Below are positions 15,016 through 35,394 of a stretch of DNA of 39,893 nucleotides, piece by piece. Under the pieces are notes generated by a model. It was not told the origin of the DNA. It saw only the letters and a list, made by a program, of their open reading frames with translations, and made no database searches. How positions within the stretch are numbered: position 1 is the first letter of the stretch; each line of letters opens with the position of its first letter. The stretch comes from a virus. The stretch lies in the UHGV virus genome UHGV-1364246; one strand, given 5' to 3'. The position numbers were made by a program, and so were the translations under genes.

Positions 15016-15039
15016 AGAGTCTCCTTAGGTTGTTGATGG

Positions 15040-15062: not shown

Positions 15063-15082
15063 GTCTAGCTGGTGGCACAGAA

Positions 15083-15115
15083 GCAAAGAAACCCAGCAGT
15101 CCTAAGACCACTGGG
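15083..15115 (-). terminator. Putative early terminator (TE-like) for host RNAP
   Basis: Minus-sense CCCAGUGG-UCUUAGGA-CUGCUGGG hairpin followed by UUUCUUUGC; sits where T7 TE lies relative to the ligase. Confidence 0.5.
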
Positions 15116-15121
15116 TTGACG

Positions 15122-16574: not shown

Positions 16575-16825
16575 TATTTCCAGCTCCTATAAGCATTCAG
16601 TTGCTGTAAGCACCATTGCTCACAGTTAAAGATTTCGTGTTCGGTAAACTCGCGGGAGACCAGAGGCTTCCCACCGTCTGCTTCAATGATGCGGACCAGC
16701 GTTGTGCGGGAGCATGGTAGGTCATCCATTCGGACCTCAAGTCCTGCCAAGCTCATCTCGCGGTGTGTCCGGCCCAACGATGACCACTGGCTCGTGGACG
16801 CATCAAATAACCAACGTCTGCTCAT
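16574..16825 (-). CDS. gp1.2-like protein (dGTPase inhibitor in T7)
   Basis: 83 aa; ends ...AYRSWK like T7 gp1.2 (...DWK); syntenic. Confidence 0.65.
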   Translation of the reverse strand: MSRRWLFDASTSQWSSLGRTHREMSLAGLEVRMDDLPCSRTTLVRIIEADGGKPLVSREFTEHEIFNCEQWCLQQLNAYRSWK

Positions 16826-16828
16826 GCC

Positions 16829-17008
16829 TTATGCTCCTACGAAGTATTTCTCTTGGTTTACCATAGAGTCTTTGCCTTCAGCGTTACGGAAAGCACCCTT
16901 GACACCACCGCCACGCTTGGTCTTGTTCAGCTTGCGGCCCTTCGGAATGTAACCTTCAGTCTTCTGACGTTCACGGATGCGCTCGAAGTTGATAGTGTTC
17001 TGATACAT
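16829..17008 (-). CDS. gp1.1-like small basic protein, 59 aa
   Basis: Translated by hand: MYQNTINFERIRERQKTEGYIPKGRKLNKTKRGGGVKGAF...; GRKLNKTKR motif as in T7 gp1.1. Confidence 0.65.
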   Translation of the reverse strand: MYQNTINFERIRERQKTEGYIPKGRKLNKTKRGGGVKGAFRNAEGKDSMVNQEKYFVGA

Positions 17009-17040
17009 GTGGTTAAATCTCCAGTAGTTTACGTTATGTT

Positions 17041-17089
17041 AGGGTTAATCATGAAGGCCACGACTCTGAGTCATGACCTTGAGTCTAAT
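17041..17089 (-). ncRNA. RNase III processing element (R1.1-like) between the promoter and gene 1.1
   Basis: Second copy of the ATCATGAAGGCCAC...ATGACCTTGAGTCTA element. Confidence 0.6.
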
Positions 17090-17108
17090 CCTATAGTGAT
17101 AGTTTAGG
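17086..17108 (-). promoter_or_regulatory. Phage RNAP promoter (phi1.1-like)
   Basis: Minus-sense CTAAACTATCACTATAGGATTAGA. Confidence 0.75.
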
Positions 17109-17183
17109 GTTAACCTCTTCTGCGTTGGATTAAAGTGAATACTGCGAGTGCTCCCAGCCACAGGGCCAGTAACTGTAGGTCTG

Positions 17184-17384
17184 TCATTTGGTTGCCGCCT
17201 CTTTAAGGGCTTGCTCGTGCATCAGCTCCACCTGCTTAACCAGCCACTTGAATTTGACGTTAAGCTGCTTTGACATCTCGGTAGGAATGACCGTGGTCTT
17301 CACCAGACCCTTGCTGTTGTGTTCTGTTACGGTCACAATTTGAGTCCCACCCTTAACGCCAGTCTGCTTGTGTGCAAATTTCAT
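17184..17384 (-). CDS. Hypothetical 66-aa Lys-rich protein immediately downstream of the RNAP gene
   Basis: ATG at 17382-17384 with AGGAGAGAGAG upstream; no T7 gene at this position. Confidence 0.5.
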   Translation of the reverse strand: MKFAHKQTGVKGGTQIVTVTEHNSKGLVKTTVIPTEMSKQLNVKFKWLVKQVELMHEQALKEAATK

Positions 17385-17398
17385 AACTCTCTCTCCTG

Positions 17399-20080
17399 TT
17401 AAGCGAATGCAAAGTCTGAAGACAAGATGTCTTCGATATTCAGTTTACCTTTCTTCGGAAGCTCAGGCAACTTGTCGCGCTGACTCTCGTGAAGCTGGTA
17501 TTCGAACTGCTCGTAGAAGTCAAGCAGTACATCGTTGTCGCGGTAGGTCTCGACCATTGTCTCACGGACGCCACGGAACAGATACTCAGCGTCAGCCGGG
17601 ATGGTCCCGAAGCTATCGTGAATCACTGCGAATGACATCACACCATACTTGCGGTGCGTGTGGACTACAGTCTTGCGGAGGTGGCTGCCATCTTGTGAGT
17701 GGACGAAGTTCGGGCTAATGCCTGACTCCTGCTTGTGCTTGTCTAGCTCTTTCTTCGTGCCTTTGTTGACTGTAGGCTGAAGGTTGAATGACCCTAAGAA
17801 CATCAGGTTCAGACGAGTGGTATCCTTCTTGCGGTATTCCTGCCAGACCGGGAAACCATCAGGTGTGACCCAGTGTACTGGAAGGCAAGGCTTCAGGATT
17901 TCACCAGTCTTCTTGTCCTTCACTTCAGCAGCCAGCAGCTTGGCAGCACCTTGAAGCCACTTCATCGCGTCAACCGCAGCAACTACGGTCACACTCACAG
18001 CTTCCCAAATCATCTTAGCCATGAAGCGAGACGCTTGTCTTGGTTCAGTGAACATAGAGCCAGACCCTGAGTCAATCGCTGGCATCACGATGTCCTCGTA
18101 CACTTGGTCTGCGAATCCGTACTCTTTCGACCCGTAGGCCAGAGTCATGACCGAACGCTTAGTTACCTTGCGTGACATGCCGTAAGTCAGCCACTGCCTG
18201 GCCAGCTCTCGTGTCCCCAGCTTGAGGCGCTCGGTAATCTCACCAGTTTTCTTATCCTCGTGAGTCACCATCTCGTTGTCCGTACCGTTAACCAGCAGGA
18301 CTTTAAGCTCCTCCTCAATGCGGTCAGACACGATGCGGTAGATGTCTTGGACCTTACCGGAAGGCGTCAGGTTTACTGCATGTCCACCTATGTGGTCTCG
18401 AAGCATCGCGCTGAAGTGCTGAATCCCAGAGCAGGACCCATCGAAAGCTATCGGCAGCGAGCAGGAGTAAGACAAACCGTGGTGCATTACGCCAGCATAC
18501 TCGAAGCAGAACGCTAGGAAGCAGAACGGAGAGTCTAACTTACCCCACCACTCAATGCTGTCCATCGGTGCCTTAGCGGTAGCCATGATGTTGTCGTGGT
18601 TGTCTTCCACCCACTTGATGCGCTCCTCGAAGGTGACTTTATCAATACCCGCACAGTTTGCACCGTGGACCTTCAGCCATTTGAAACCATCAGCACCAAT
18701 AGGCTTACCGACTGCCAGAGTTAGGAGACCCTTCTGCATGTCGTTACCCTGAGGGTTGAACATCGGCACAGCGTAGACGCGACCACGCCAGTCCATGTTG
18801 TACGGGAACCAGATGGCCTTGAACTGAGAGAACTTGTTCGCTTGGTTAACGATAAAGCTCAGCGACAATCTGCGTGACTGTCGGGCCTTCTCTCGGCGGT
18901 AGATACCAGCAGCAGCCTTCTTCCATTCCTTGAGTTCCTCTTCAGTCTCACCCGCATAGTCTTCAGGCTTCAGCGGCTCCATCTGAGGGATGTCATCAAT
19001 AGGCGTGTTGTTCAACTTCTCTACCATGTTCACCACGTCCAGAACCTTCTTGTTCACCTTCCAAGGCGTATTCTGGATGATATTCACAGCGTCATAGACT
19101 TCAGGCATGTACACGTCTTCATAACGTGCCACCGCAGACTTAGACCCTAAGCGAATCAGTGGTAGTGGTCTGCGACCTTTGGCCCAGTACCCACCTCCTA
19201 CGACACCAGTCCACGGCTTAGGTGGAACGACACAGGGCTGGTAGACTGGAGCGATACCCGCAAGGCTGAATCCTCGTTGTGCCATCTTCTTGACCCAGAA
19301 GTCTGACAGGTGGACCATCTCGACATCAGCCGCTGCATTGCCAGCACCGTAACGCTTAAGCTCGACCAGTTGTGTTGACTGGATGACAATCTCAAGCATC
19401 TTGATTCCAACGTGGACAGCCTCGGTCGGACTCCAAGTTCCCCACGCATCTTCAAGTTGGCCTTGCTCCAGCATGGAGGTCTCAACAGCTTGCATGTAGG
19501 CTTTTTTGTAGGATGCCCCGGCGCGCTTGTTCAGGTTCTCAGCTATCGCCTTCTTGAAGTGCTCCTTCTCCTTATCACGGATGCGACCGAAGCGGATTTC
19601 ATCCTCAAGTGTGCGACCTATCGCGGAGGCCATCGGTGTAATCGGTATCCCTTCAGGCTTGACCAGCTTGGAGAGGATGACCTTCAGTATGATGACCGCA
19701 GCAGACTCACAGGAGATGCGCAGAGAGCGGTCCTTGACGGCCTTCTCTTCAGTGCTCAACATGGTGAACGCTACGCTAGGACGAGAGGTTGACAGCTTAC
19801 CGTCTGGACCTTCGTGCCACTCCTTGACGGCTTGCGCAATCTTAGGGACCAGAGTCTGCATCAAAGGCTTGGCGACCTGATTGTCTGCCAGTTCCCCGCG
19901 CTCAGTCTGTCGCTCAAGGTTCTTGATGAAACGTCGCTCGCCTTCAGTGTATGCCTCATGCTCAAGCTGAAGCTGTTTGACTGCAAGGTCTTGCCCGTAG
20001 TGGTCAGCCAGCAGGTTAAACGGCTCAATGGCGTTCGACACATCAGAGAAGTCGTGTTTGTCAATAGAGATGACGCTCAT
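17399..20080 (-). CDS. DNA-directed RNA polymerase, single-subunit (T7 gene 1-like)
   Basis: 893 aa; collinear with recalled T7 RNAP (PYNMDWRGRVYA, DGSCSGIQHFSAMLRD, HDSFGT, C-terminal FAFA); specificity-loop region reads LMFLGSFNLQPTVN versus T7 LMFLGQFRLQPTIN. Confidence 0.97.
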   Translation of the reverse strand: MSVISIDKHDFSDVSNAIEPFNLLADHYGQDLAVKQLQLEHEAYTEGERRFIKNLERQTERGELADNQVAKPLMQTLVPKIAQAVKEWHEGPDGKLSTSRPSVAFTMLSTEEKAVKDRSLRISCESAAVIILKVILSKLVKPEGIPITPMASAIGRTLEDEIRFGRIRDKEKEHFKKAIAENLNKRAGASYKKAYMQAVETSMLEQGQLEDAWGTWSPTEAVHVGIKMLEIVIQSTQLVELKRYGAGNAAADVEMVHLSDFWVKKMAQRGFSLAGIAPVYQPCVVPPKPWTGVVGGGYWAKGRRPLPLIRLGSKSAVARYEDVYMPEVYDAVNIIQNTPWKVNKKVLDVVNMVEKLNNTPIDDIPQMEPLKPEDYAGETEEELKEWKKAAAGIYRREKARQSRRLSLSFIVNQANKFSQFKAIWFPYNMDWRGRVYAVPMFNPQGNDMQKGLLTLAVGKPIGADGFKWLKVHGANCAGIDKVTFEERIKWVEDNHDNIMATAKAPMDSIEWWGKLDSPFCFLAFCFEYAGVMHHGLSYSCSLPIAFDGSCSGIQHFSAMLRDHIGGHAVNLTPSGKVQDIYRIVSDRIEEELKVLLVNGTDNEMVTHEDKKTGEITERLKLGTRELARQWLTYGMSRKVTKRSVMTLAYGSKEYGFADQVYEDIVMPAIDSGSGSMFTEPRQASRFMAKMIWEAVSVTVVAAVDAMKWLQGAAKLLAAEVKDKKTGEILKPCLPVHWVTPDGFPVWQEYRKKDTTRLNLMFLGSFNLQPTVNKGTKKELDKHKQESGISPNFVHSQDGSHLRKTVVHTHRKYGVMSFAVIHDSFGTIPADAEYLFRGVRETMVETYRDNDVLLDFYEQFEYQLHESQRDKLPELPKKGKLNIEDILSSDFAFA

Positions 20081-20149
20081 ACTTAAAGTCCTTGTTATTA
20101 GTCTTTCACTTAAAGTCTCTTTGGTCTTTCACTTGGAGTCTTAGACCTT

Positions 20150-20172
20150 GAGTCCTATAGTGATAGTTAAGT
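20150..20172 (-). promoter_or_regulatory. Phage-type promoter about 75 bp upstream of the RNAP gene (TTAACTATCACTATAGGACTC)
   Basis: Matches the -17..+2 core; GGA start as in this phage's class-II promoters; followed by a half R-site motif GACTCAAGGTC. Confidence 0.5.
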
Positions 20173-20177
20173 AAGAA

Positions 20178-20504
20178 TCACTTGCATATCAGTGGGATAG
20201 CGTGAAGATGACTGAAGTCACCATGAGACGTGTGCTTGATGGTTGACCGTTGGTCTATCGCCTTCCAGCCTGAGACTAAAAGTTTGCCATCGTCGGTTGT
20301 TGGTCGTCCACCATACGCCAGACACATCAGTTCGGACTTATGGCCCTCAGCCCGTAGTCGTGCCTGTAGTACACGGTCACGCTCCCGCTGTTGACGTGCG
20401 GTATGACTCGACGTTCCGTGACGATACCCGGTAGCCAGTAGGCTTAACATTTGCATGTCTGCGTCCATAGAGTGTACCAGATTAATCCCGTATGACTTGT
20501 TCAT
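20178..20504 (-). CDS. Hypothetical 108-aa early protein immediately upstream of the RNAP gene
   Basis: ATG at 20502-20504 with AGGAGAA upstream; His-rich C-terminus; no recognised homolog. Confidence 0.5.
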   Translation of the reverse strand: MNKSYGINLVHSMDADMQMLSLLATGYRHGTSSHTARQQRERDRVLQARLRAEGHKSELMCLAYGGRPTTDDGKLLVSGWKAIDQRSTIKHTSHGDFSHLHAIPLICK

Positions 20505-20506
20505 TA

Positions 20507-20932
20507 TTAATTCTCCTGAAGATATTTGAGTGCGCTTGCCAGAAGCTCTGGCGAATCTTTAAATTTTCCTAGACCAATGTTACACGATGCACACAATAAA
20601 CCTCGCACCTTTCCAGACTTATGACAGTGGTCTACGGCTAACCTTCTACCTGTCTCACAAGCACTACCGCAGATTTTGCACCCACCGCCTTGACCTTCCA
20701 GCATGGTAGTATATTCACCCTCCGTTATTCCATACCTAGACCTCAGGTGATAGCCTCTCTCCGTGCTTCGTGCTCTTTTCAATGAGTCGCCATTCCTGTG
20801 TTGTGACGTAACGACCGATGACACTTGACAGGGCTTGCAATATGTCTGTAGTCCGTCCCGCCTAGCCTTGTTCCTGCCAAACATAGTAGCATCCTTAGTC
20901 TCTCCACATTTGGCGCAGGTCTTTTCCATCAC
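20507..20932 (-). CDS. Endonuclease VII-family (HNH-like) protein with N-terminal zinc ribbon
   Basis: 141 aa; CAKCG...CKPC zinc ribbon, then LAVDHCHKSGKVRGLLCASCNIGLG, typical of the Endonuclease_7 family. Confidence 0.65.
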   Translation of the reverse strand: MMEKTCAKCGETKDATMFGRNKARRDGLQTYCKPCQVSSVVTSQHRNGDSLKRARSTERGYHLRSRYGITEGEYTTMLEGQGGGCKICGSACETGRRLAVDHCHKSGKVRGLLCASCNIGLGKFKDSPELLASALKYLQEN

Positions 20933-21126
20933 AGTTTGCTCCCAAGAGTTGCTATATCCCAGACGTTCGCTAGGTTGCGCATGAATCGTCCGTTAGGTTG
21001 ACGTACAGTCCAGCGACCCAGACGTACATAGTTGAATTTGTAGACTTTACGTGCCTTGTTGACGTCTCTCACCAGCACGTAGGCGATAAGTCCATAGCCT
21101 ATGGCTATCAATAGTGTTATACTCAT
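20929..21126 (-). CDS. Small hydrophobic early protein (65 aa, probable single transmembrane helix)
   Basis: MSITLLIAIGYGLIAYVLV... hydrophobic N-terminus; overlaps the Endo VII start (ATGA). Confidence 0.4.
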   Translation of the reverse strand: MSITLLIAIGYGLIAYVLVRDVNKARKVYKFNYVRLGRWTVRQPNGRFMRNLANVWDIATLGSKL

Positions 21127-21560
21127 AGTGATTTCCGTTTAATACAGTCGTATATCCCATACCCTATCAGCCAGATAACTGGCGCTAGACATACCCAATA
21201 TCCCACACCCATAGTTACCTCCTATTAATGCAAGTGGTAATCTTTGAGGCCACCTATCAGTTAGATGACCTCTCGCCTATCACTCAGTACCCGCCTGTTA
21301 GCGTTATGGTCAGGCTATGGTGATTAGCCACGTAGCAAGCCCCGCGCTTCATCATCTCGTAGCAACCATCGTAGAACGCCTGTTCACTGCTATAAGTTAT
21401 CTGGTACATGTTTACTTGTCCTCAGCGTGTAAGCTGTCGTGTATGAGCTTGCGGCCCTCATAGACCGCCTTCAGGAGACGCATAGTCGCATCGTGGTTTA
21501 ATTGCCCGGTCTTGACCATAATCCGGGCGTTGATGATGTGGTGCTGGCAGAGACCATAAG

Positions 21561-22085
21561 TTACCATCTTGATGACCTCACCTCTTGCAGCTTGGACACA
21601 AGGAAGAAGCAGTCCACCAGTATTAACTTGCCGTTCACGGCCCGTACATTGCGTGGGCTTATCTCAAACTGAATGTCAGACCCAAAGTTAGCGCAAGCAT
21701 CCATCGCCATCATCACATCCATCAGACCATCCCGCACAGTCTCAGTCTCAGACCTGTCGTGTGCAGCTTGGAATATCTCGTACCACTTGTGATACAGTTC
21801 AGCAGGTCTAGAGAATACCGGAGACCGTGAGAAGCAGTCTCGCAACACCTGATAGAGTTGCCATTGGTCATCATCTAAATGCGCCTTGAGACCTCGTGTT
21901 GGTGGCATGTAGTCCATCTCATACGTGCCTAACTCAATCATTTTGACTTCAGGGAACAGTGGAGACTCAGGGAACCATCCCCACGCCATACACTCCTTGA
22001 TTGGGTCTGAAGAGACCAGAATTACACGCTTCCCGCAGTCCTTCAGGTAGCACTTAGTGAACGCGCCTTTGCCTATCAGTTTCAT
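21561..22085 (-). CDS. Putative protein kinase-like early protein (short gp0.7-like kinase domain)
   Basis: 174 aa; glycine-rich loop LIGKGAFTKCY; C-terminal NVRAVNGKLILVD resembles the T7 gp0.7 segment NIMFSNGDVPYITD; first gene after the sigma70 promoters. Confidence 0.4.
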   Translation of the reverse strand: MKLIGKGAFTKCYLKDCGKRVILVSSDPIKECMAWGWFPESPLFPEVKMIELGTYEMDYMPPTRGLKAHLDDDQWQLYQVLRDCFSRSPVFSRPAELYHKWYEIFQAAHDRSETETVRDGLMDVMMAMDACANFGSDIQFEISPRNVRAVNGKLILVDCFFLVSKLQEVRSSRW

Positions 22086-22270
22086 CTTGTTTATCCTATA
22101 GTTAGTGACTATCAGTCAGGGCCTTCAGATGTAGACTCAAAGACCCTGTAGTTAGTCGCTATCGGCGCACATTAAGAGTTTATCCAGATTGTTAAAGAGC
22201 ATTCGCGTTGGCTGTCGTCGCCGTGCTATCCCGTTTCAGTGTTGGGACTCACTAATCTTGCCTGCCGTGT

Positions 22271-22299
22271 AAGTTACTACAGTCAAACCAGCTTGTCAA
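22271..22299 (-). promoter_or_regulatory. Sigma70-type early promoter (A-series-like): TTGACA, 17-nt spacer, TAACTT
   Basis: Minus-sense TTGACAagctggtttgactgtagTAACTT. Confidence 0.45.
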
Positions 22300-22425
22300 C
22301 CACTTTCTTAGCTCGCTTGCTGTAGTAACCTACCATCTTACTTAGTAGACCAGATATTCGCGCTGGTCACTCCGCATAGCCGATGTAGTTTATCAGTTCC
22401 GGCTCGCTGTACTGCTTGGTGAATC

Positions 22426-22454
22426 ATACTACTTTAAGTCTTACATCTTGTCAA
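22426..22454 (-). promoter_or_regulatory. Sigma70-type strong early promoter (A1/A2-like): TTGACA, 17-nt spacer, TAGTAT
   Basis: Minus-sense TTGACAagatgtaagacttaaagTAGTAT; upstream block TAAGTAGACAGCCTGATAAGTCG resembles recalled T7 sequence near A2. Confidence 0.6.
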
Positions 22455-22584
22455 CTACTTTCTGTCATCTGCCTGTTGTTCTTACGACTTATCAGGCTGT
22501 CTACTTAACCGTGATGACCCGGCGTCTTCACTATCCGGTGGTTGCCGTGTCGTGTTGACGTAAGCTATTAAGCCATAGTCTAGA

Positions 22585-22607
22585 CCTATAGTCAATAGGT
22601 AATTTGA
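22585..22607 (-). promoter_or_regulatory. Degenerate phage-promoter-like sequence near the left end (phiOL-like)
   Basis: Minus-sense TTACCTATTGACTATAGGTCTAG; only the ACTATAGG core is conserved. Confidence 0.3.
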
Positions 22608-22719
22608 GATAATATTGATTGAGCTATCGTCGGCCCCATGGTGTAAGAGGATATAGTCTTTGACTAACATGTCTTAGACCGTAAGTCTATAGCCTTTGTG
22701 TCTATTAACTGTGGGTCTC

Positions 22720-23045
22720 TGACTGTAGGTGTTGGTGTCTTATGGTTGAGACTGTAGGTTAGTGACTTATGGTCTGATACAGATAGAGACTCAAAGAAGA
22801 CCCATAGTCCCAACCTATCGTCCTGACCATCAGCCATAGCCTAGACCTATCGTAGACCTAACGTCTTGACCATTGGTCCAACCTTATGATAGACTGGGGT
22901 AGGGCCTTTGGTCTGGACTGAAAGAGGGCCTATGGGGAGACTTGAGGTTCTTGAACTGTGAGATGTGGTCTCAAACTTTTGGTCCAAAACTCATCGTCAT
23001 TACTGTAGGTCACAGCCACTGTAGGTCAAGGACCGTAGGTCAGGC
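22720..23045. repeat. Genome-end region: collapsed terminal repeat flanked by arrays of the short direct repeat (C)YGTAGGT; inferred physical left end at about 22963
   Basis: Five copies of ctgtaggt/ccgtaggt (22723, 22752, 23003, 23019, 23033), analogous to T7 ACCTAAAG arrays; minus-sense TCTCACAGT...CCCCATAGG at 22963 downward resembles the first bases of T7. Confidence 0.5.
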
Positions 23046-23200
23046 GACACTAGGATAGACCAATAAGTAGGATGACCCTAAGTGAGCTTCTCTTAAGATG
23101 TTACCTAAAGTCCTTGACTACAGTAGCTAAGGTCAGTAGAGTAGCGTCAGCTATGAACTGACCTTAGGTCTTACTTTCGTTGATTGTTACCATTACGGCG

Positions 23201-23359
23201 TTAATGACACTCAGACACCAGAGAACATACGAGAGTCTCGACCCACCCGACCCACTGACTTCCAGCAGTAACGCCAGCAGCAAGTAGAACAGCAGCAAGA
23301 AACCTGTATGTAGCTCGATTGGTCGCCAGAGCTTTAAGTACAGCTTTGGTCTTTGCCAT
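23201..23359 (-). CDS. gp19.5-like small membrane protein, 52 aa
   Basis: Translated by hand: MAKTKAVLKALATNRATYRFLAAVLLAAGVTAGSQWVGWV...; AGGAGGT 9 nt upstream; lies after the phiOR-like promoter. Confidence 0.5.
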   Translation of the reverse strand: MAKTKAVLKALATNRATYRFLAAVLLAAGVTAGSQWVGWVETLVCSLVSECH

Positions 23360-23547
23360 ATGCTACATACCTCCTGTATCTATGGTCGGTGACTATCTGT
23401 ATTGGAGGGATTATGATTAATATCACCCTCCTTCCTTCCTTCCATCGGTGCAAGCCTTAGGTAAGAACTCGGAGTCTGCCTCCTAAGGTCTTGCATAAAG
23501 TCTGCATATGTATATTCACTACAGTAATACTATAAGTAACCGGGGGT

Positions 23548-23570
23548 CTTCCCTATAGTGATAGTTAAGT
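23548..23570 (-). promoter_or_regulatory. Phage RNAP promoter near the right end (phiOR-like, GGGAAG start)
   Basis: Minus-sense CTTAACTATCACTATAGGGAAGA. Confidence 0.75.
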
Positions 23571-23664
23571 CCAAACTACTTGTAAAACAGTAGGTTAGAC
23601 TGGTAGTAACTATAGGTTACTAACCGCGTATTCATGCAGCTTTCACCCATAGTTATTCATTCAG

Positions 23665-25428
23665 TTAGTGGAACGTAACGTAGGACCCTAGTCCTAGCTC
23701 GTCGTCCGTATCGTGCGTTACCCGGACCCCATTGTCCCAGAACTCAGTGTGGATGGACTCGAATCCTTTCCGTGGGTTCTCCATCTGTTCCTCCAGCCAC
23801 TCCTCAGTGACTTCACGTTCGCCTTTGTTGGCATCCTTAGCCATAGACTCAACGAAGAACTGTACACCGATAGCCAGCGCATCAAGTCGGTCATCGTGTG
23901 CCAAGGCGCCACGTTCACGAGATATACGTGTCATCTGGTAGAAGAGAGAGTAGATAGGGTTACGAACACCATCCTTATCAGAGGCTGACTGGTAGTCTTG
24001 GACGATAGCAGCAGCGTTTACGATAAGTCGGTGAGACCCCATGATAGGCTCCAGAACGTCACAGATGCGTAGTTCTTTCTGACCCTTACTCTTCACTTCA
24101 GTTACAGCCGCAGGATGAATACGGGCAGCTACAGGCTTGAATAGCTCAAGGTACATACCATCACCGAAGTTACCCTCAATGACGTATTCGTTAACCTTCC
24201 ACTTACGACCAATCTTAGCCAAGGCTTCCAGCGTAGAGTCTTCATAGCCACCACGCATACCACCAACTTCCATAGCGAAGATGTAGCCGTTGAGCTGGTA
24301 CAGTACCGCATAGCCAGTTTCATCCTTACCACGACCACTAGGGTCAATGACCAGAATCTTCTGGGTGTACGAACTGAAGGCAGAACCTACAGTCTGATAC
24401 GTGTGGTATGAGTCACCCATGAGTCCAACGTTAGGAACGTCCTCACGCTTGTTCTGAGGGTTAGGCAACCATTGGTAGACCATTGGGCTGGACGCTGGGT
24501 CCAAGTCTGCTACGATAAGGTCACGGAGCTTCAGAGGGTACTTCTCGGCATCACTCAGGTTCGGGTTAAGCATGAACTGTAGAGCGAAACCAGCTTTACC
24601 GTACGACAACTCGCGTTCCTTCAGGTCCGTATCATCGAAGCGTACTTCATCAGTCGGACGCCAGTAGAAGGACTCAGGGTCCTCTTCCAGCTCTGCCTGA
24701 AGCATAGGAGCCAGACGGTCGCCGTAAGACTGCCAGTCCTTCCTGTCGCGTGGATAACGAGCGGGCCAGATAGTAGTGGTGTACCCACGACCTTCCAGCT
24801 CACGATACAGGGTCATCTCGTTCTGAGGAGTACCCAGATAGATGATTGTACCTCCCGGCTTCAGGATAGCGTCGAATTCTTTCACAAGCTCTGACAGACG
24901 GTCACGCGCAGCCTGAGTCGCTGAGTTGTTCGGAACTTCCACGTCATCGGCAATCAGGATGTCAGCACGACTACCAGTCAACTGACCAGTGATACCAACG
25001 GACTTAACCGAAGGTGAGTGGTCCGGCTTGGCTGGCCCAACATCAAAGCTGATAACCGCATCTCGTTGTCCCTGCTTAGGTTTGAGTTCCTGAAGCTGAG
25101 GCATGAGGTCGATGATTCGCTTGATGAAGATGGAGTTCGCATCGGCTCGTTCCTTTGAGGCCGACACAATCATGAACTTCAAGTCTGGGTTGTTCCATAA
25201 CTTCCAGACAACGAAGGCACACGTAATGAAGGACTTCCCTATACCACGGAACGCCTGTAGAATGAAGCGCCTGTTGTCCCCAGCCGATAGTTTCTTCGCC
25301 ATGTCAATCTGACAGCGAGTCGGGACCGGGAGTGACAGAGCTTTCCACAGGACGAACAGGAAGAACACGAAGTCTGACTTCATACGTGCAGTCATTAGCG
25401 CCTGACGCGCCACTAAGTCTTTACTCAA
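23665..25428 (-). CDS. Terminase large subunit (gp19-like)
   Basis: 587 aa; [28 protein letters not shown]...[18 protein letters not shown] (Walker A) closely matches recalled T7 gp19; apparent TTG start with AAGGAGGT 8 nt upstream. Confidence 0.93.
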
Positions 25429-25430
25429 GG

Positions 25431-25595
25431 TTACACCTCCTTAGGTTCAAACCACTTAGATGGGAACATACCAATGTACCGTCCTCCCCTAATATGCACA
25501 TAGGAGTCAATGTCTTCAAGCGAGTCCACCCAGTAGACTGAACCCACCTCAAGAATCCCATTTGAGTCAGACTTTAAGCATTTAACTCTAATCAT
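25431..25595 (-). CDS. Hypothetical 54-aa protein between spanin and terminase (no T7 counterpart)
   Basis: Translated by hand: [54 protein letters not shown]; GAGGGAG upstream; its stop TAA lies inside the terminase SD. Confidence 0.5.
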
Positions 25596-26037
25596 TGCTC
25601 TCCCTCTCTTGCTGTAAGGATCTCACAGTGTCCTGAAGCGCCTTAATCCACTTGTCTCCTTTCAGTCCGATGGCGATAAGACGTTTAGCATCTCGTTCGT
25701 CAAGTTCGGCGTAACCATCAATGACGCATCGACCGTCACTTTGCGTGGTTCCACTCGTAGGTTTGACTCGGATGCGCAGCCGCTTATTGTCAGACTGAAG
25801 GTCAGCAATAATCCTGTCAGTGCTGCCTTCCAGCGAGGACATTTCGTCCTGAAACCGTTTGGACACCTTGTTGACTTCAGCTTGGACAGCAAGTCTTGTA
25901 TCCTCCGATGCCTTAAGATTCGAGGTGTATTCTGCATTGACCTTAGCCTCCCACTTATTGTTAGCGGTGTGATAGCCACCAGCAAACATCACTGCTGCAA
26001 GTAACCACGGAGCCGCTCTCTTTAAAAATTCGAGCAT
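25588..26037 (-). CDS. i-spanin (gp18.5 / Rz-like)
   Basis: 149 aa; N-terminal transmembrane segment AAPWLLAAVMFAGGY then coiled-coil-like region; syntenic; contains an embedded frame with a lipobox. Confidence 0.75.
   Translation of the reverse strand: MLEFLKRAAPWLLAAVMFAGGYHTANNKWEAKVNAEYTSNLKASEDTRLAVQAEVNKVSKRFQDEMSSLEGSTDRIIADLQSDNKRLRIRVKPTSGTTQSDGRCVIDGYAELDERDAKRLIAIGLKGDKWIKALQDTVRSLQQERESND
25662..25937 (-). CDS. o-spanin (gp18.7 / Rz1-like lipoprotein) embedded in the i-spanin gene; start uncertain
   Basis: +1 frame within the i-spanin gene encodes a basic n-region, hydrophobic AALTGLLLTFSLT and lipobox ISGC; first in-frame ATG is far upstream of the signal peptide. Confidence 0.45.
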   Translation of the reverse strand: MQNTPRILRHRRIQDLLSKLKSTRCPNGFRTKCPRWKAALTGLLLTFSLTISGCASESNLRVEPRKVTVDASLMVTPNLTNEMLNVLSPSD

Positions 26038-26085
26038 AGTCGCCCTCCCGGTTTATCAGATTTCACGTAGAGTATCCTCCACTAG

Positions 26086-26139
26086 TTAGTGTTAACCATA
26101 AAGGCCACTACATATAGTAATGACCTTGAGTCTAACACT
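26086..26139 (-). ncRNA. RNase III processing element (R18.5-like)
   Basis: Third copy of the CCATAAAGGCCAC...ATGACCTTGAGTCTA element, between genes 18 and 18.5. Confidence 0.6.
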
Positions 26140-26147
26140 TAAGATAT

Positions 26148-26411
26148 TTACTGTACTCCATATCCAGTGTCATTATCTTCCGTAGCGGAGAGCACCTTAT
26201 CGTACTCTGCGTTCAGGGCCTCCATATCAGCGAGCGTCTTCTCATCAACAGACACCTTGCTTAGCACGAAGTTGTGACGAGCCAGTAGCTTCTCAATGGC
26301 GTTGTAAAGCTGAGGTGAACGCTTAGAGTCATCCCGCAGGTCTTGCAGCATGAGTCGAGCACGTTCAGTATCTAGCATTAAGAGGAACTTCTCTAAGTCC
26401 ATCTGCGTCAT
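26148..26411 (-). CDS. Terminase small subunit (gp18-like)
   Basis: 87 aa; FLLMLDTERARLMLQDLRDDSKRSPQLYNAIEKLLARH matches recalled T7 gp18. Confidence 0.85.
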   Translation of the reverse strand: MTQMDLEKFLLMLDTERARLMLQDLRDDSKRSPQLYNAIEKLLARHNFVLSKVSVDEKTLADMEALNAEYDKVLSATEDNDTGYGVQ

Positions 26412-26602
26412 GTTTTACCACCTCCTTTAATCGTTTTGTAGACTAGCACACCAATCTGGACAACGGTGTACGCGATAGCTGCAACGTAGAACCATTCGTT
26501 CAGTGTAAGTCCGAAGAAGAACCGACTGGCACCATCAGCCGCAGCGGTCCCGACGATAGGAGAGGCTTTAAGGACCTCATTCTTGAAGTCTAACTCAATC
26601 AT
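26408..26602 (-). CDS. Holin (gp17.5-like, class II)
   Basis: 64 aa; ...LKASPIVGTAAADGASRFFFGLTLNEWFYVAAIAYTVVQIG matches recalled T7 gp17.5. Confidence 0.85.
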   Translation of the reverse strand: MIELDFKNEVLKASPIVGTAAADGASRFFFGLTLNEWFYVAAIAYTVVQIGVLVYKTIKGGGKT

Positions 26603-26924
26603 AAAACCTCCAGTTTAAAGCGGGTCGTCCGTGACCCAAAGTTGTACCATACGTTGGTCAGCGTGTAGTTAGCCTCTACCTCCACAACCTTCGATCCTCT
26701 ACCCAGTTCAGGAATCCAATGGTGCCAGAGGTAGCAGTAATGGTCGTAACCACGTTAACGTCTTTAACAGTTCCGTCATCAGTAGTCAGAGTAAAGAGAT
26801 TGGAACCATCAGAGCCATTGATATTTGATGGTTTTAGCAACAACATCAGCAACCAAAACAACAAATCCCACAAGGAGGAAATGAGCCTCCTATGAAATTC
26901 GACGATTCAATACCCTTCTAATGA

Positions 26925-26950
26925 TAAAAATAACCCGCCAAAGCGGGGTT
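26925..26950. terminator. GC hairpin with flanking A/T runs immediately 3' of the tail fiber gene (possible bidirectional terminator)
   Basis: aaaaataaCCCGCcaaaGCGGGgtttattatttt; embedded in an AT-rich 355-bp gap between fiber and holin. Confidence 0.5.
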
Positions 26951-26957
26951 TATTATT

Positions 26958-29144
26958 TTAAAAAGTAGCACCCCTCCATGAGCAATCAACAATCCCACCG
27001 CGCACCATCTTCCACCGCATGTTGTACGATGCCGATGGTACAAGGCGGAGTCCTATTCCCAGATTCGGTGTCAGCTCGACCGCATTTATCCAAGCAGTTG
27101 ATGAGGTTGAAAATGTAAAAGATAGCTGCTCCGTATTTGTGTAAAAATCATCAACGCAAGTTGTTATTGATGCTGTAGTATTTGCAGTATCCGCGCCGTT
27201 AAAATAATACAGCTCAACAGCCACGTACCCGTGGTTCTTCATCCTTGTAGCAAACACGCCTCCGGTGTTTCTTGCCGCGATACCACCCTGTTTGAATGTG
27301 GTGTTACGCTCTCCCTGTGCGCTCCCGGCATTGATAGTCTGGAATGGTGTGACATCGGCGGAACTGTACTTGTCATTGTACAACTGCATAGCCCCACCCA
27401 TTCTATCCGTGTAAAATGCGTACACATCTATGTCATAAGGTTTTTGTCTAGGTACAGAATTGAATTCTTTCCCTAAAGCGTACAAATCAGTATCGGTGGT
27501 CAATGTGTTGTGTGTGTTTACGATGAGCTGTGTTTCCCACGAGAACGCCGCATACTCACCATCGCCCATGTTAAAAAACTTCTTAGCGAAAGCTATCTGT
27601 TTTGCTTTGTTTTTGAAGTTGTCAGAACCACCATTTGCATCAGTTGTAAACAATCCAACGCAAGGTACAATTCTTGATGTAGGGCATTTATACTTTAGCT
27701 CGGCCCACCCAATAACAGCCTGTCGTTTATTCCTGGCATCATCCCAGTCATCATGATAATACGCGTCTGCAAATATAATATCGTATCCAGTACCATCATA
27801 ACCGCCCGGGTGTGTATTTGAATCAAATCCAAAAATACCATGTTCAGCTATGCATAATGATTTTTCTGTGAATGATTTAAATGCCGCGATGCGGGTTTCT
27901 TGCGCCGCCCTGCTAACTGAATTATTTTGTGGTTCATCAAACAAATAATAGCCGATAACACAATCTCTACTGTCTAAGTCGGTAGCCGGAGTGTTTGTCT
28001 GTCCATATATTGGCCCACCAAGTATAAGTTTAAGCCCAACAGCTTCGGCGGCGTTACAGGCTTTTTCCATATTCCCACCGCTTGTCCACGCTTGTCCGTA
28101 GTGTATTAGCGTATTAAACCCGGCAGTTTTTAGTTGTAACATATCACATATATCAAACACGCGATGGACATATACAGCCTTCATGAGCGAATGATTTACA
28201 GGGGTTTCACTGTCAAGCTCACAAGGAACGTTTGGTAGCCTTGTGTATGTGATGGCGGCCTTTCCTGTCAATCTGGCTCCTTCAGGCCAATCAAAACTCG
28301 ATAATGTCGTGGCACCGGATATGTGTGCGTACCCGTGGTCCGATATAGCTGATAGAACCGCGTCTTTACCATCAACACCACTACCATAAACATACCCGTA
28401 ATTAGAGATGTCTGCGCGGTCTAAATTTAATCGTTGTTGAACAGTTAATCCGTTATTAGTCCCAACTAAATTGGAACCATTATTTGTTTTAAGTGCGCTT
28501 CTTAATGAAGCATCACCAACACTAACCCACGCACCTAATCCAATCCCACCGGAAGTTTCAGGAGTTGAACCAGCAGGAACGTTCTTTGGAAGCGTACCAC
28601 CCCAGCGGTAATAATCACCATCCTCTTCCCATAGCAGGACCTCGTTCCATGTTGTAACGTTGAAGCCTTTCTCGAAGGAGCGACGGGTAATATAGCCAAA
28701 TAGACCAGCTGCCTTGATACTCTCAGCAATTCGTCGTGCTTCGTCCTCGCTATCCTTAGCGTTGCCAGCAGAGCTACCAGCAGCATCGGCATATTCCTTC
28801 GCTAAGTCAACCGTTTGGTCTCGACCTTCTTCTGCAATATGGATAGCCTGAAGCTCTGCATTGGTCAGGTCACTAGCTGTCAACACTGAGCCATTCCTGA
28901 AGTCTACCACTAAGTCAGTTCCAGTCTGACGGTGAATACGAACGATGTCGAAACCTGATTGGTCAACCAACATCTCAATCATCGTTGGATTAATGAATCG
29001 GTAATCTCGACCAACTTCCAGTACACGGTTCAGGGTAGGGTTAGAGCTATTCACCAGCGTAACAACAACAAACGTTCTGGCTAGGTAGTCGAACTCAATC
29101 CTGTACTGAGTGTTTCCTGAAGGGAATTGTGTAATCGTGGACAT
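26958..29144 (-). CDS. Tail fiber / tailspike: gp17-like N-terminal adaptor fused to a glycoside-hydrolase-like (putative polysaccharide depolymerase) C-terminal region
   Basis: 728 aa; the N-terminus (up to about LVDFRNGSVLTASDL...AIHIAEEGRD) matches the T7 gp17 anchor; the remainder is unrelated to T7, with a TIM-barrel-like YLFDEPQ motif; coding DNA from about 27000 to 28500 is visibly AT-richer than the rest of the genome. Confidence 0.8.
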   Translation of the reverse strand: MSTITQFPSGNTQYRIEFDYLARTFVVVTLVNSSNPTLNRVLEVGRDYRFINPTMIEMLVDQSGFDIVRIHRQTGTDLVVDFRNGSVLTASDLTNAELQAIHIAEEGRDQTVDLAKEYADAAGSSAGNAKDSEDEARRIAESIKAAGLFGYITRRSFEKGFNVTTWNEVLLWEEDGDYYRWGGTLPKNVPAGSTPETSGGIGLGAWVSVGDASLRSALKTNNGSNLVGTNNGLTVQQRLNLDRADISNYGYVYGSGVDGKDAVLSAISDHGYAHISGATTLSSFDWPEGARLTGKAAITYTRLPNVPCELDSETPVNHSLMKAVYVHRVFDICDMLQLKTAGFNTLIHYGQAWTSGGNMEKACNAAEAVGLKLILGGPIYGQTNTPATDLDSRDCVIGYYLFDEPQNNSVSRAAQETRIAAFKSFTEKSLCIAEHGIFGFDSNTHPGGYDGTGYDIIFADAYYHDDWDDARNKRQAVIGWAELKYKCPTSRIVPCVGLFTTDANGGSDNFKNKAKQIAFAKKFFNMGDGEYAAFSWETQLIVNTHNTLTTDTDLYALGKEFNSVPRQKPYDIDVYAFYTDRMGGAMQLYNDKYSSADVTPFQTINAGSAQGERNTTFKQGGIAARNTGGVFATRMKNHGYVAVELYYFNGADTANTTASITTCVDDFYTNTEQLSFTFSTSSTAWINAVELTPNLGIGLRLVPSASYNMRWKMVRGGIVDCSWRGATF

Positions 29145-29190
29145 TATGCCTCCTTTGTGATTTAAATGGAGACCTATGGTAGCGCCTCCC

Positions 29191-29213
29191 GTTTCCTATA
29201 GTGATAGTTTAGT
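29191..29213 (-). promoter_or_regulatory. Phage RNAP promoter (phi17-like), overlapping the gp16 stop codon
   Basis: Minus-sense CTAAACTATCACTATAGGAAAC. Confidence 0.75.
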
Positions 29214-32200
29214 CCTTGATGTGGATACCTTGCTCCTCAAACGTTCCAAGCAACAGCTTCTGGGTAATTGGGTCGTTCGGAACCAGTTCACGGAACGTAT
29301 TATACATCCCGGTCATGTAGTCACGCTCGTTGACACGAGTATCAGCCTTGAGGTAGCCAGCCAAGTTGTAAGCCGAAGCGCCAACGTTAGCAGCATATCC
29401 GAAAGCTGGAACCTGCTCCAAGAAGTTACCAACAACATTCATCACAGGGCCACTTGTAGCTGCACCATACGCGATGGCACGTTCAGGCTTCTCTGTAGGT
29501 GAACGAGGTAGGATAGACGAACGGAGCATCTTAGTGTCCTCATACCCAGCGATCCCACCCAGAATGTTGGCGACACCAAGTGGTCCACCAAGATGTGAAC
29601 TACGTGATAGAGCTGCATATCCAATCATCGTCGGGTCCAGAGCTTGCTTGAGGTAGTCACGGTCTCGACCCTCCTGCATAGCGTAAGCCTTGACATGCGC
29701 CTGAGCCATGTAGTAGATACCAGCAAGGCCCATAGAGATCACAGTGGACAGAGCAGCGTCCATCGCTCGGTTGTTCTTCGTGGCGTTATAGAAGGTTCGC
29801 ATGGTACGTCCATTGATGGACTTGATGACGAAGTTCTTAAACTGAAGGACAGTCTTAGCGAGAGGACCATAAGCCTTGGCGTCCATGTTTGATAGCTTAT
29901 GAGGTCGGAGTAACGTTTCGTCAGCGATAGTGTCACCCATACGCCACAGGTCCATAGCCCTTGGGTCCTGACTGAACGCCTTCTTATCCTTGATGGTGTA
30001 CTTCCCGTCTGGACCACGCGTCACTGACTCACGGATTAGGGACTTAATGCCCTTCCACTGCTCGTCAGAGATACCAGCGGTCTTCAGCCATCGGTCATCG
30101 AACTTACGCTTACTGCCCGTCAGGCTATGCTCCACTATGTCAGACAGGAAGCCTTGACGTCCAGCATCTAACAGGTAGTTGGTCGTACCGTTGAGGACTT
30201 TAGTGAACGGAGAGCGTACTGCAAGTTCACCAGTGTAATACTTGGCAGTCCCCAGAGCTGTAGCTGTACCACGACCAAGGTCGCTGTAAGACCGCAGACG
30301 GTCAATGACATCCTGTTTAGATGGGCGGATTGAGTCATCAAGTTCCTTACCAAAGATAACATTGTGCAGGTCCTTAATCTCTGAGGCCCCTACCTTCTTG
30401 TTACGGAAGGCTAGGTCACGGAAAATCGGGACTCCATGCAGCAGCGCACGAACGTTACCACGAGCCAGCATACCACCAATCTCCGTTAAGTTCTGAACAC
30501 CCATGTAGGCATTCTTAGCGAAGAACGATAGGTCTGTCATTGTGCGCATAACGGTAGCGAAAGCAGCATCGTCAGCACCATCACGTCGAGCACGACCAGT
30601 CAGAATCTTCAAGGTGTCACGTAAGGTCGAGACCTCACCTTTCAACTTACCGTCATCACCAGCCTTGTTCATCATGGTCTCAACCAAGTCCTTCATGTCC
30701 TTCGTGGTTCTGCCTGTACCAGCCATGATAGCAATATCGCCATTAACTCTACGGTTGTAGGCCGGGATAATCTTGTCCATGTCCCACTCACGCAGGTTAT
30801 TGACACTGAAGGTTTGACCGTTAGGCAGGACGATTGACATATCGCTATCGAACAGGTTACGAGCCTCAAGGAAGCTGTTGTTCTCCAGACCAACCAGACC
30901 GTTGATGTTCTCTTCCATTACGGATGAACGTTCGAACTGCTCGGTGTGAGAGATACCGTAAGCCTTATCGTTGGCGTACTTATCGACCGCAGCAGCAAGT
31001 CCCTCTGGAGTCAACGTAGGGTCAGCCTCTAAGAGTGCCTCGTCCACGCGTTTCTTGACTTCAGGTCGAGACGCATAGCTGGTCAACCATGACTTTTTGA
31101 TGGCCTCCTGCAACGCCTCTGGACTACCAAGCTCCTTGATGTACAAATCCTTCATCTGTTTGCTATACACATGAGGGACGTAGGTTCCCTTGAAGCGGCT
31201 ACCCGGAAAGATAGACTGAGCGTCTGGGCGACCAAACATAGCCGGGTTCTCCATCATCTCACGCTTGGCGTCGAACTGGTTCTTCAGCAGGTCATAGACT
31301 TTCAGTTCTCCCGGAGTTAGTTCAGCCTTCAGGTTTCCGCTACCATCTTCGATAGCCATAGACACACGCTGGTAGATGTCCTGACGGAATGCGCCAGAGT
31401 CTCGCCAGAATGCTGTCTGGAAGTACGGGTCCTTTAGTGCCTCAGTAACCGCATCGTCGATGTCGTTGTAGAACCGATGGTCCACAGCACGAAGTCTCTC
31501 GAACACGTCTGACGCAGTTGTCCCGATTTTACCTGAGGCCCCAGACTGCATACCAGTCGGTGAACGTACTAAGTCAGCAGCTACTCCACGAATCTCAGGG
31601 TTCTCAGATCGAAGCAGCTTCAGGCCAATCTCGGTAAGTCCACCAAGGTTCACACCAGCAGCGGCACGTTCCGGCTCAATCACTTCGTCAAAGACTTGAC
31701 GTGTCTTAGGGTTCAGAGGGTTCTCACCAATCAGGATTGAACCATCTTCCAGTCGTACACTACCCGGCTCGTTCGGAACGTCTGCGAACTTAACACCTTG
31801 ATGACTAAAGGTCTGCTCACCTTCCTGAATAGGGAGACGAGACAGGTCCTGACCATCAACGTTACGAGCGGTCTCACGAGCTTCCAGACGTGTAGCTGGC
31901 CCAGCAAACTCATTAGTGTTGCGACCTAAGGCTCTGCCTAGGCCATCAGCTATAGCAGTCATACCGCCACCGAAGAGAGCACCACCAAGGATAGCTTCAG
32001 CCACATGAGCATCACCACCAGCCACTGAGGTACGGGCCATCTCAGACACACCAGCTAGTGCTCCAGATTGAGCCGCCACTGTGAACATCTTGTTGACCAG
32101 TTTACCTCCTTTACCCACCTGTCCAGCGATAGGAACGTAGGTCAGAGGGTCCACACCAGCGCCAATCACACCAGCGGCTAACTGAGCACCAGTCCCAGCC

Positions 32201-33096
32201 TTGGCCTTCTCTTGGTCCAACTTCTGGTTCTCAAGCGCCAAGTTAATAAGCTCGGTCAGGTTCTGAGGAGAGCCTCCAGTAATGACTCCGTAATACTGAG
32301 GCAGAACCCCAGCGTTACGAATCTGGTCAAGCTCCTCACGGGTCCATTTATGGTTGTTCCATCTTGTCGGGTTGAACACATCTCCAATGACATCAAGTGA
32401 GTCCTCGGTCTGACCAGCGCGGATAGCCACGCCGACCATAGAGTTCTTCACTTCAGCTTCTGTAGCCGCACCGAACCCGAACCACGTAGAGCGTCCCTCT
32501 CGTTCCTGCATGGTCTCGCCAGTAGCCTTATAGAACATCTCACCAAACGATTCGTTGGGAGCTTCAGGTGCTTGACCCTCAATGTTCAGACCAGCAGCGG
32601 TCGGAAGGTTCTCACCCAGAGCTACTTTAGGTTTAGACTTGAGTCCTTCCGTGAGTGCGTCAAATACGTTAGCGCTTACTGGTGGCGTCTTTGGGCTGAT
32701 ACCGTTGAGTGCTCTTGCGACTCCCTGCTGATAGACTTCAGGGTCGTACCGGGAGCCTGTCTCATGGAAGCTGATAGCTTGCGCCAGAGAAGACAGGGTG
32801 TCCGGATTCGAGAGGTCGAGACTCTGGGTAGCTGGGATACCAGTCGCAGCCACCACTGAGTCAATATAAGCCTGAGTGTCGTTCTCATTAGGAGGTGCCC
32901 ATCGGTTGATAATCTTCTCGATGGAGTCATAACCTTGGCGACCGTAGGACAGCAGGTTTTTACCTAAAGCTCGGACGCCAGACTCTGGACTATCGAATGT
33001 GACAAATGCGCCATCATCTCCAGTCATTCCTTCCCATTGGTCCTTACTTACCCGGATGTTCCCAGGATTGTTATTGCGAATACCACGAGTCGCCAT
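29209..33096 (-). CDS. Internal virion core protein gp16-like, with a non-T7 N-terminal domain
   Basis: 1295 aa; from about residue 200 onward collinear with recalled T7 gp16; the first ~190 aa (MATRGIRNNNPGNIRVSKDQWEGM...) do not resemble the T7 lytic transglycosylase domain. Confidence 0.9.
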   Translation of the reverse strand: MATRGIRNNNPGNIRVSKDQWEGMTGDDGAFVTFDSPESGVRALGKNLLSYGRQGYDSIEKIINRWAPPNENDTQAYIDSVVAATGIPATQSLDLSNPDTLSSLAQAISFHETGSRYDPEVYQQGVARALNGISPKTPPVSANVFDALTEGLKSKPKVALGENLPTAAGLNIEGQAPEAPNESFGEMFYKATGETMQEREGRSTWFGFGAATEAEVKNSMVGVAIRAGQTEDSLDVIGDVFNPTRWNNHKWTREELDQIRNAGVLPQYYGVITGGSPQNLTELINLALENQKLDQEKAKAGTGAQLAAGVIGAGVDPLTYVPIAGQVGKGGKLVNKMFTVAAQSGALAGVSEMARTSVAGGDAHVAEAILGGALFGGGMTAIADGLGRALGRNTNEFAGPATRLEARETARNVDGQDLSRLPIQEGEQTFSHQGVKFADVPNEPGSVRLEDGSILIGENPLNPKTRQVFDEVIEPERAAAGVNLGGLTEIGLKLLRSENPEIRGVAADLVRSPTGMQSGASGKIGTTASDVFERLRAVDHRFYNDIDDAVTEALKDPYFQTAFWRDSGAFRQDIYQRVSMAIEDGSGNLKAELTPGELKVYDLLKNQFDAKREMMENPAMFGRPDAQSIFPGSRFKGTYVPHVYSKQMKDLYIKELGSPEALQEAIKKSWLTSYASRPEVKKRVDEALLEADPTLTPEGLAAAVDKYANDKAYGISHTEQFERSSVMEENINGLVGLENNSFLEARNLFDSDMSIVLPNGQTFSVNNLREWDMDKIIPAYNRRVNGDIAIMAGTGRTTKDMKDLVETMMNKAGDDGKLKGEVSTLRDTLKILTGRARRDGADDAAFATVMRTMTDLSFFAKNAYMGVQNLTEIGGMLARGNVRALLHGVPIFRDLAFRNKKVGASEIKDLHNVIFGKELDDSIRPSKQDVIDRLRSYSDLGRGTATALGTAKYYTGELAVRSPFTKVLNGTTNYLLDAGRQGFLSDIVEHSLTGSKRKFDDRWLKTAGISDEQWKGIKSLIRESVTRGPDGKYTIKDKKAFSQDPRAMDLWRMGDTIADETLLRPHKLSNMDAKAYGPLAKTVLQFKNFVIKSINGRTMRTFYNATKNNRAMDAALSTVISMGLAGIYYMAQAHVKAYAMQEGRDRDYLKQALDPTMIGYAALSRSSHLGGPLGVANILGGIAGYEDTKMLRSSILPRSPTEKPERAIAYGAATSGPVMNVVGNFLEQVPAFGYAANVGASAYNLAGYLKADTRVNERDYMTGMYNTFRELVPNDPITQKLLLGTFEEQGIHIKD

Positions 33097-33100
33097 TATG

Positions 33101-35383: not shown

Positions 35384-35394
35384 TAGTCCTCCTC

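Follow-up and report, generated by a model that had tools for sequence, protein, structure and literature searches.

A conserved 54-codon reading frame between gene 18.5 and the large terminase gene of a K1F-like phage

Introduction

In a T7-like phage genome that carries a short open reading frame (ORF) between the Rz-like gene 18.5 and the large terminase gene, is that frame a gene, and, if it is, does it serve the terminase that follows it or some other purpose? The question arises from an earlier note on the sequence, which described such a frame as an extra gene translationally coupled to the terminase. The stretch of DNA analysed, here called the window, is ~39.9 kb long (1..39893) and is apparently the whole genome of a K1F-like relative of T7 (Kayfunavirus), permuted and reverse-complemented. 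Megablast of the region returns 170 phage records, mainly Escherichia and Salmonella Kayfunavirus, at 90–97% identity. The 10-kb segment from tail to terminase is covered to at most 73% by any record of the phage collection, largely because the tailspike differs. The genes around the 54-amino-acid (aa) ORF are all on the minus strand, and the features needed in what follows are these:

From ~39674 down to 23665, minus strand: late genes
29144..26958, minus strand: tailspike, gene 17 (728 aa)
26602..26408, minus strand: holin, gene 17.5 (64 aa)
26411..26148, minus strand: small terminase, gene 18 (87 aa)
25588..26037, minus strand: Rz-like i-spanin, gene 18.5, with 18.7 embedded (149 aa)
25600..25606, minus strand: Shine-Dalgarno element (SD) of the small gene, GAGGGAG, within the final codons of Rz/18.5
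25443..25605, minus strand: insert or cassette of 163 nt, missing in K1F and most Kayfunavirus genomes
25431..25595, minus strand: 54-aa candidate accessory ORF, stop codon included (6.25 kDa, pI ~5.6)
25434..25442, minus strand: terminase SD AAGGAGGTG, ancestral, which also supplies the three closing codons (K-E-V) of the small gene
23665..25428, minus strand: large terminase, gene 19 (terL), 587 aa, TTG start
20080..17399, minus strand: RNA polymerase-sized ORF

The 54-aa ORF is present where it had been reported, between 18.5 and the terminase on the minus strand (25595..25431) and behind an SD of its own. The distance from the Rz stop to the terL start measures 159 nt, in agreement with the gap of 160 bp first given; the corresponding figure of ~20 bp for T7 is likewise close, as 21 nt separate the end of T7 gene 18.5 (37348) from the start of gene 19 (37370). 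The ORF is absent from both T7 and K1F and is extra in that sense. It has no paralog in the window, where tblastn returns only the ORF itself. Homologous products of the downstream gene match the Pfam family Terminase-T7_RNaseH-like.

The small reading frame is under purifying selection

Frame length is weak evidence for coding here, and conservation is the deciding evidence; the chance that one frame stays open for 54 codons can be put at roughly (61/64)^54, or ~0.08. Against nine copies from the same site, the window ORF has dN/dS values of 0.04–0.14; the median for all pairs is 0.10, and the variable sites number 10, 11 and 29 at codon positions 1, 2 and 3. Across ~15 homologous copies dN/dS is near 0.1 and the variation is mostly third-position. 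The conservation of the frame in related phages, on which the earlier note had staked its proposal, is thus borne out: the frame is kept under purifying selection. As far as sequence comparison can tell, the 54-aa ORF is a real protein-coding gene.

That the frame should instead be spurious, or the segment a non-coding spacer (an RNA element or promoter region, for example), is hardly credible. The ORF is short, it has no family annotation and two further ORFs overlap it in other frames. The codon-position pattern and dN/dS nevertheless fit the 54-codon frame, which effectively refutes the idea and marks the two overlapping ORFs as by-products. An Rfam scan of the region gives no family, and a scan for sigma-70-like promoters and intrinsic terminators in and beside the insert finds none. 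Homologs recognizable at the protein level in distant phages also argue against a spacer.

Start and stop signals

The ATG of the small ORF (25595–25593) overlaps the stop of Rz/18.5 (25588) by 8 nt (ATGATTAG), and the sequence immediately 5' of the start reads AGAGGGAGAGCA-ATG. The SD, GAGGGAG, ends 4 nt before the ATG, with a predicted anti-SD duplex of -8.5 kcal/mol. Random positions average -2.9 on this scale, 4% of them reaching -8, and the median for long ORFs in the genome is -8.7. In relatives the SD is stronger (AAGGAGGT, -11 to -13.4 kcal/mol). The translation signal that had been held essential to the proposal is therefore in place, before a start, M(I/V)(R/K)V, that is conserved in all copies.

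At the other end the ORF reads CCT AAG GAG GTG TAA cc TTG AGT AAA. The TAA follows directly on the terminase SD and leaves 2 nt to the TTG at 25428, much as the earlier note had placed it. This second SD has an anti-SD duplex of -13.3 kcal/mol. The TAA-CC-TTG arrangement of the window recurs in the metagenome contig L029; in most other carriers stop and start overlap as ATTGA. The reading of TTG as the terminase start also stands, since it is conserved in K1F, EcoDS1, Bas105, CLB_P1 and others and the N-terminus translated from it aligns with T7 gp19.

Neither lineage starts the large terminase at ATG: the T7 RefSeq record (L024 1071) has GTG and the K1F-like genomes examined have TTG, each behind a very strong SD. 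In the record of Baskent_phicoli_1 (L014 1857) the terL start is annotated at a downstream ATG. The conserved SD and TTG are present ~33 nt upstream of it, and the annotated start is probably mis-called.

The insert and the ancestral junction

Comparison with K1F, in which the ORF is missing, defines the insert. There, gene 18.5 ends ...CAGCAAGAG|AAGGAGGTGACGCATTGA, the TTG of gene 19 overlaps the TGA, and the Rz gene ends on AAGGAGGTGAnnCATTGA, as at the terL start of the window. The window junction reads ...CAGCAAGAG | AGGGAGAGCAATG...GAACCT | AAGGAGGTGTAACCTTGA, and what it has beyond K1F is the 163-nt segment 25443..25605. Most relatives align by megablast in two pieces that span 288 nt against a 451-nt query, consistent with a segment of this size. 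Its 5' boundary is AGGGAG (other carriers have AAGGAGGT) and its 3' boundary AAGGAGGTG; the latter sequence recurs where K1F gene 18.5 and a 53-aa ORF in EcoDS1 end. Direct repeats of the form A(A/C)GGAGGT flank the segment. They are near-identical in locus L009, a cleaner carrier, where the junctions read AAGGAGGT|AAAATG...GCGACGGAGGT|GACGCATTGA.

The terminase SD and TTG pre-exist in relatives that do not have the ORF; judged by this comparison they are ancestral, and the ORF did not bring them. Translational coupling, the central claim of the earlier note, accordingly survives in part. Termination and reinitiation are physically plausible with a stop that abuts the SD and TTG, but the architecture is already there in K1F and is not a property of the ORF. 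The ribosome-binding site of the terminase (window 25434..25442; L002, L003, L001) fixes the five final codons of any ORF that comes before terL. Thus the tail is KEVTH in K1F Rz and KEVKH in both the EcoDS1 53-aa ORF and the Bas105 small ORF. Most carriers of the small ORF end in KEV(K/T/P)H, the window and L029 in KEV* and SP7 in KEENH. The insertion has also rewritten the C-terminus of Rz, which is ...QQERESND in the window versus ...QQEKEVTH in K1F.

Homologs of the small ORF in Drulisvirus phages (see below) lose their similarity right after the W-F-E codons, where the SD of the next gene (GAGGAGG) begins. Taken with the flanks of L009, this means that the breakpoints coincide with SD sequences on both sides. 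Recombination within SD repeats would account for such breakpoints, a reading to be weighed against the fact that SD-like sequences flank almost every gene. The GC content of the ORF, 43.0% against 50.0% for the genome, lies at the 5th percentile of 165-nt windows, a weak signal.

Distribution of homologs

The gene is not newly found: GenBank relatives already list a hypothetical protein at this place. The small ORF is carried by 3 of the 170 matching GenBank records, as Bas105_0005 (XPK40853.1) in Bas105, XCD08730.1 in Baskent_phicoli_1 and SP7_0049 (QLF80658.1) in vB_EcoP_SP7. The three copies occupy the same site and share 98–100% aa identity over 53–54 residues. Each is 56 aa long, and in each the ancestral ...KEV(K/T)H-TGA ending (KEENH in SP7) still overlaps the TTG; the TAA of the window comes two codons earlier. 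A literature search returned nothing on the small ORF or on the 18.5/19 junction.

Larger collections add few members. A search of 5.8 billion proteins yielded six more clusters (at 90% identity) of 56–57 aa, all directly upstream of terL, on five contigs of ~27–41 kb and one fragment of 1.3 kb. One further T7-like metagenome contig carries the ORF at 94% identity. By tblastn, three Drulisvirus-type phages have copies with 54–72% identity over residues 1–50, namely AV102 (WPK32994.1), KX1_25 and Kpph9, where the copy is unannotated. IMG/VR contributed two Drulisvirus-like contigs, and the metagenome scan three more, besides that one T7-like contig. A profile search of 1.84 billion representatives gave only four small-protein clusters at 50% identity, and a scan of 185,579 bacterial and archaeal genomes no homolog.

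Four other matches from the 1.84-billion search were discarded. P0009 and P0013 are beta-propeller repeat proteins whose match is confined to a short DSNG-like stretch, and hence spurious; P0011, with a similar short-stretch match and no beta-propeller domain, was set aside, as was the tandem-repeat protein P0012. A fifth, P0015 (251 aa), has no Pfam domain. Two repeats within it, V-x-C-V-R-x-D-G-N-G-L-L-x-x-G-x-x-Y-x-V, resemble the small protein in its N-terminal half, and P0015 may be distantly related, with the domain in tandem.

The neighbourhoods of the homologs differ. The Drulisvirus copies sit between an exonuclease gene and an endonuclease (endonuclease VII) gene in the DNA-metabolism block. 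Of the other homologs, one is immediately upstream of the phage RNA polymerase, one is beside NT5C/NrdD/HNH and one is among small ORFs. In phages where no terminase comes next the protein is still 42–67% identical.

A variable slot at the 18.5/19 junction

The junction holds different contents in different genomes:

K1F and most relatives: empty
Window, SP7, Baskent, L008, L009, L012, L013 and L029: small ORF alone
EcoDS1: unrelated 53-aa ORF
L010: EcoDS1-like ORF and small ORF in tandem
Bas105: 140-aa ORF and small ORF
L006: 263-aa ORF and small ORF
CLB_P1 (gene 18.8, 'putative protease'), P762 and EPr2: 263-aa ORF alone

The EcoDS1 ORF (L002 1657..1818; L010 2846..3004) encodes 52–53 aa beginning MMWKTTYMFLDGSEMLGWRY... 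and is unrelated to the small ORF. In the phage collection tblastn finds it in EcoDS1 only, and it has no family match. The larger gene (L025 701..1492 for CLB_P1 gene 18.8; L006 2200..2991) matches PHROG 17779 and has distant relatives in Salmonella and Aeromonas phages of ~50–70 kb. The 140-aa version in Bas105 (L001 1002..1424) matches it in two pieces spanning ~790 nt and therefore looks internally deleted. In CLB_P1 and EPr2 the upstream TAA precedes the SD, ~13 nt from the TTG; with the 21-nt gap of T7, this makes the tight overlap of stop and start common but not obligatory.

Synonymous divergence bears on how the small ORF came to be here. In L006, L009, L010 and L012 the dS of the ORF from the window is 0.65–0.99 versus 0.16–0.22 for terL, a three- to fivefold excess that, with ~33 synonymous sites, is indicative rather than precise; in Bas105, Baskent and SP7 the two values agree. 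The contrast in the four loci suggests that the history of the ORF is partly independent of the backbone. A different history, in which the gene was present in the Kayfunavirus ancestor and was repeatedly lost by deletion between the SD repeats, is unlikely and would alter the origin of the gene, not its function. Precise deletion between the A(A/C)GGAGGT direct repeats does yield the exact K1F junction, and same-site alleles are deeply diverged, with dS up to ~1.2. The dS excess in the four loci nevertheless favours exchange over vertical descent; the GC content of the ORF below that of the genome, the homologs at a different genomic position in a different subfamily and the unrelated cargo in the same slot weigh in the same direction.

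Predicted fold of the protein

From an alignment of 7 sequences AlphaFold2 gave a pLDDT of 89.6, for a single model. When 11 sequences were used, the five models all scored 90–93 (best 93.1) and shared one five-strand topology. The 54-aa protein is accordingly predicted, with high model confidence, to be a stand-alone SH3-like five-strand beta-barrel. The resemblance to SH3 is at the level of fold only, and no profile supports membership of an SH3 sequence family. Neither the protein nor 11 family members had a significant match when scanned against Pfam and PHROG (best PHROG 'MazF-like', E = 0.17), and for none of the 11 did Pfam return any hit, SH3 or other, up to E = 10. Among PDB sequences a profile search found E >= 0.42, with the best SH3-domain sequence at E = 1.3. 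Foldseek against BFVD recovered the SP7 ortholog and weak SH3-like matches only. Set beside the SH3 domains of Nbp2, Src and Sho1, the small protein has 10–25% identity and no evident ALYDY or WW ligand-binding motifs; unlike them, it is stand-alone and phage-encoded. Since Pfam, PHROG and PDB sequences offer no match, a generic fold and the gene context are the basis for any proposed function. Pfam and PHROG show no nuclease, integrase or transposase domain in the 54 aa, so the gene does not qualify as self-mobile or homing. A kinship with a neighbouring DUF551 protein was also considered and rejected (hhalign probability 1%).

These results speak to a reading in which the peptide is irrelevant and translation through the insert merely delivers ribosomes to the terL TTG. 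Although the stop/start geometry is retained in nearly all copies, as such a relay would require, the strong purifying selection on amino acids, the persistence of the protein where no terminase follows and the confident compact fold make it very improbable.

Relation to the terminase

More weight attaches to the idea, implied by the earlier note, that the small protein or its translation is dedicated to the terminase, tuning TerL expression or assisting packaging. In every T7-like copy the ORF is directly upstream of terL, including three of the three loci with extra cargo, and its stop lies 2 nt before, or overlaps, a weak TTG start. The three-of-three terL-proximal position among cargo-bearing loci is not significant, and the same position is expected if cargo inserts at the Rz-side SD.

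Other observations point away from such a role. The SD/TTG arrangement exists without the ORF in K1F, with Rz as the upstream gene. CLB_P1 and EPr2, where the preceding stop falls before the SD, and T7 with its wider gap do without close contact, and the terL SD is strong on its own; both points speak indirectly against a strict dependence of terL translation on that of the gene before it. Drulisvirus and other homologs are not near a terminase. Nor does the ORF co-vary with the terminase: 167 of the 170 relatives lack it, and TerL is near-identical in non-carriers, with aa identities of 99.6% in K1F, 99.2% in EcoDS1 and 99.1% in CLB_P1, all without the ORF. Among carriers TerL is at least 99% identical in those of K1F type and 94% identical in the divergent L008. 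The evidence is against a dedicated terminase link, and a terminase factor is an improbable reading.

A model for the small gene

The explanation that we consider probable, with room for doubt, takes the ORF for a genuine accessory gene, small and translated, of a K1F-like Kayfunavirus ('gene 18.9'), whose product is an accessory or host-interaction binder and not a packaging component. Homologs in early or middle DNA-metabolism regions, and a TerL that does not co-vary with the ORF, are the grounds for setting packaging aside; the product is most likely a portable accessory module for protein binding rather than a terminase factor. The following steps are envisaged. (i) The small gene would be read from the late transcript. 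(ii) Translation would begin at its own SD and ATG, the latter overlapping the stop of Rz, and would end 2 nt short of the terL TTG. (iii) The insert would thereby keep the hand-over of ribosomes from an upstream ORF to terL, the role of Rz in K1F, with little disturbance of terL expression; tolerance of cargo in the slot would follow from this preserved hand-over. (iv) The cassette would be gained, and its alleles exchanged, by recombination at short SD homologies, and the same repeats would permit its precise loss. (v) The small protein may act alone and bind, stoichiometrically, a partner protein of the host or the phage; this is the weakest step and is put forward with low confidence. (vi) As an accessory factor it would be of use to the phage on some hosts, a role that fits the patchy distribution and the differing functional neighbourhoods.

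A bolder version is doubtful but would reach further. Here the Rz/TerL junction is a dedicated exchange slot operated by recombination at ~8-nt SD sequences, and the SH3-like cargo is host-directed and founds a family of stand-alone effectors. If this were true, small genes would be swapped, stacked and removed within SDs, as a counterpart at the level of translation to the T4 PeSL cassettes, and the protein might, for example, bind a linear motif and so neutralize a protein of host defence or housekeeping.

For the accessory-gene reading itself, nothing in the analysis points to a new mechanism, and its consequences are more practical. For annotation, a real gene falls below common ORF-size cut-offs, and the terL start is a conserved TTG. 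The 18.5/19 junction of Kayfunavirus appears as a tolerated insertion slot in which the downstream ribosome-binding site is preserved whatever precedes it; such a slot would be a natural site for payload genes in K1F-type therapeutic phages, with terminase expression little disturbed. The protein belongs to a tiny family confined to a few Autographiviridae and, if it is a host-interaction factor, adds to the small phage effectors.

Comparison with known systems

The closest parallels are in the same slot. CLB_P1 gene 18.8 (263 aa) and EcoDS1 AS9_0052 (53 aa, 'unknown product') lie between Rz and TerL within the same SD bounds and before the same TTG. Their proteins are unrelated to the small protein, with no cross-match, and gene 18.8 stops before the SD, not after it. 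The Drulisvirus homologs, for their part, are also tightly packed against their neighbours, but in DNA metabolism and not in the late block for lysis and packaging. They overlap another downstream ribosome-binding site, and for that reason their C-terminal tails differ.

Two broader concepts apply in part. A moron, in the sense of Hendrix and Juhala, is reportedly an autonomous extra gene in a phage genome, with its own promoter and terminator and a deviating base composition. Like a moron, the small gene separates two neighbours that K1F and most of the 170 relatives have side by side; the resemblance extends, weakly, to its GC content. It is unlike a moron in that no sigma-70-like promoter or terminator of its own was found and in being embedded in an operon, translation-linked on both sides. 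With the PeSL mobile regulatory cassettes of T4-type phages, small ORFs annotated without function are shuffled at hyperplastic sites, with breakpoints in short repeated expression signals (PMC2839356, PMC4122927). The PeSL signal is a promoter with a stem-loop, whereas the flanks of the small gene have only the ~8-nt SD repeats A(A/C)GGAGGT, with neither promoter nor stem-loop.

The site directly after terL is another variable site. In L012 a gene for a 186-aa HNH_3 endonuclease (4945..5505) directly follows terL; the other relatives of the window have an ORF of ~52 aa there.
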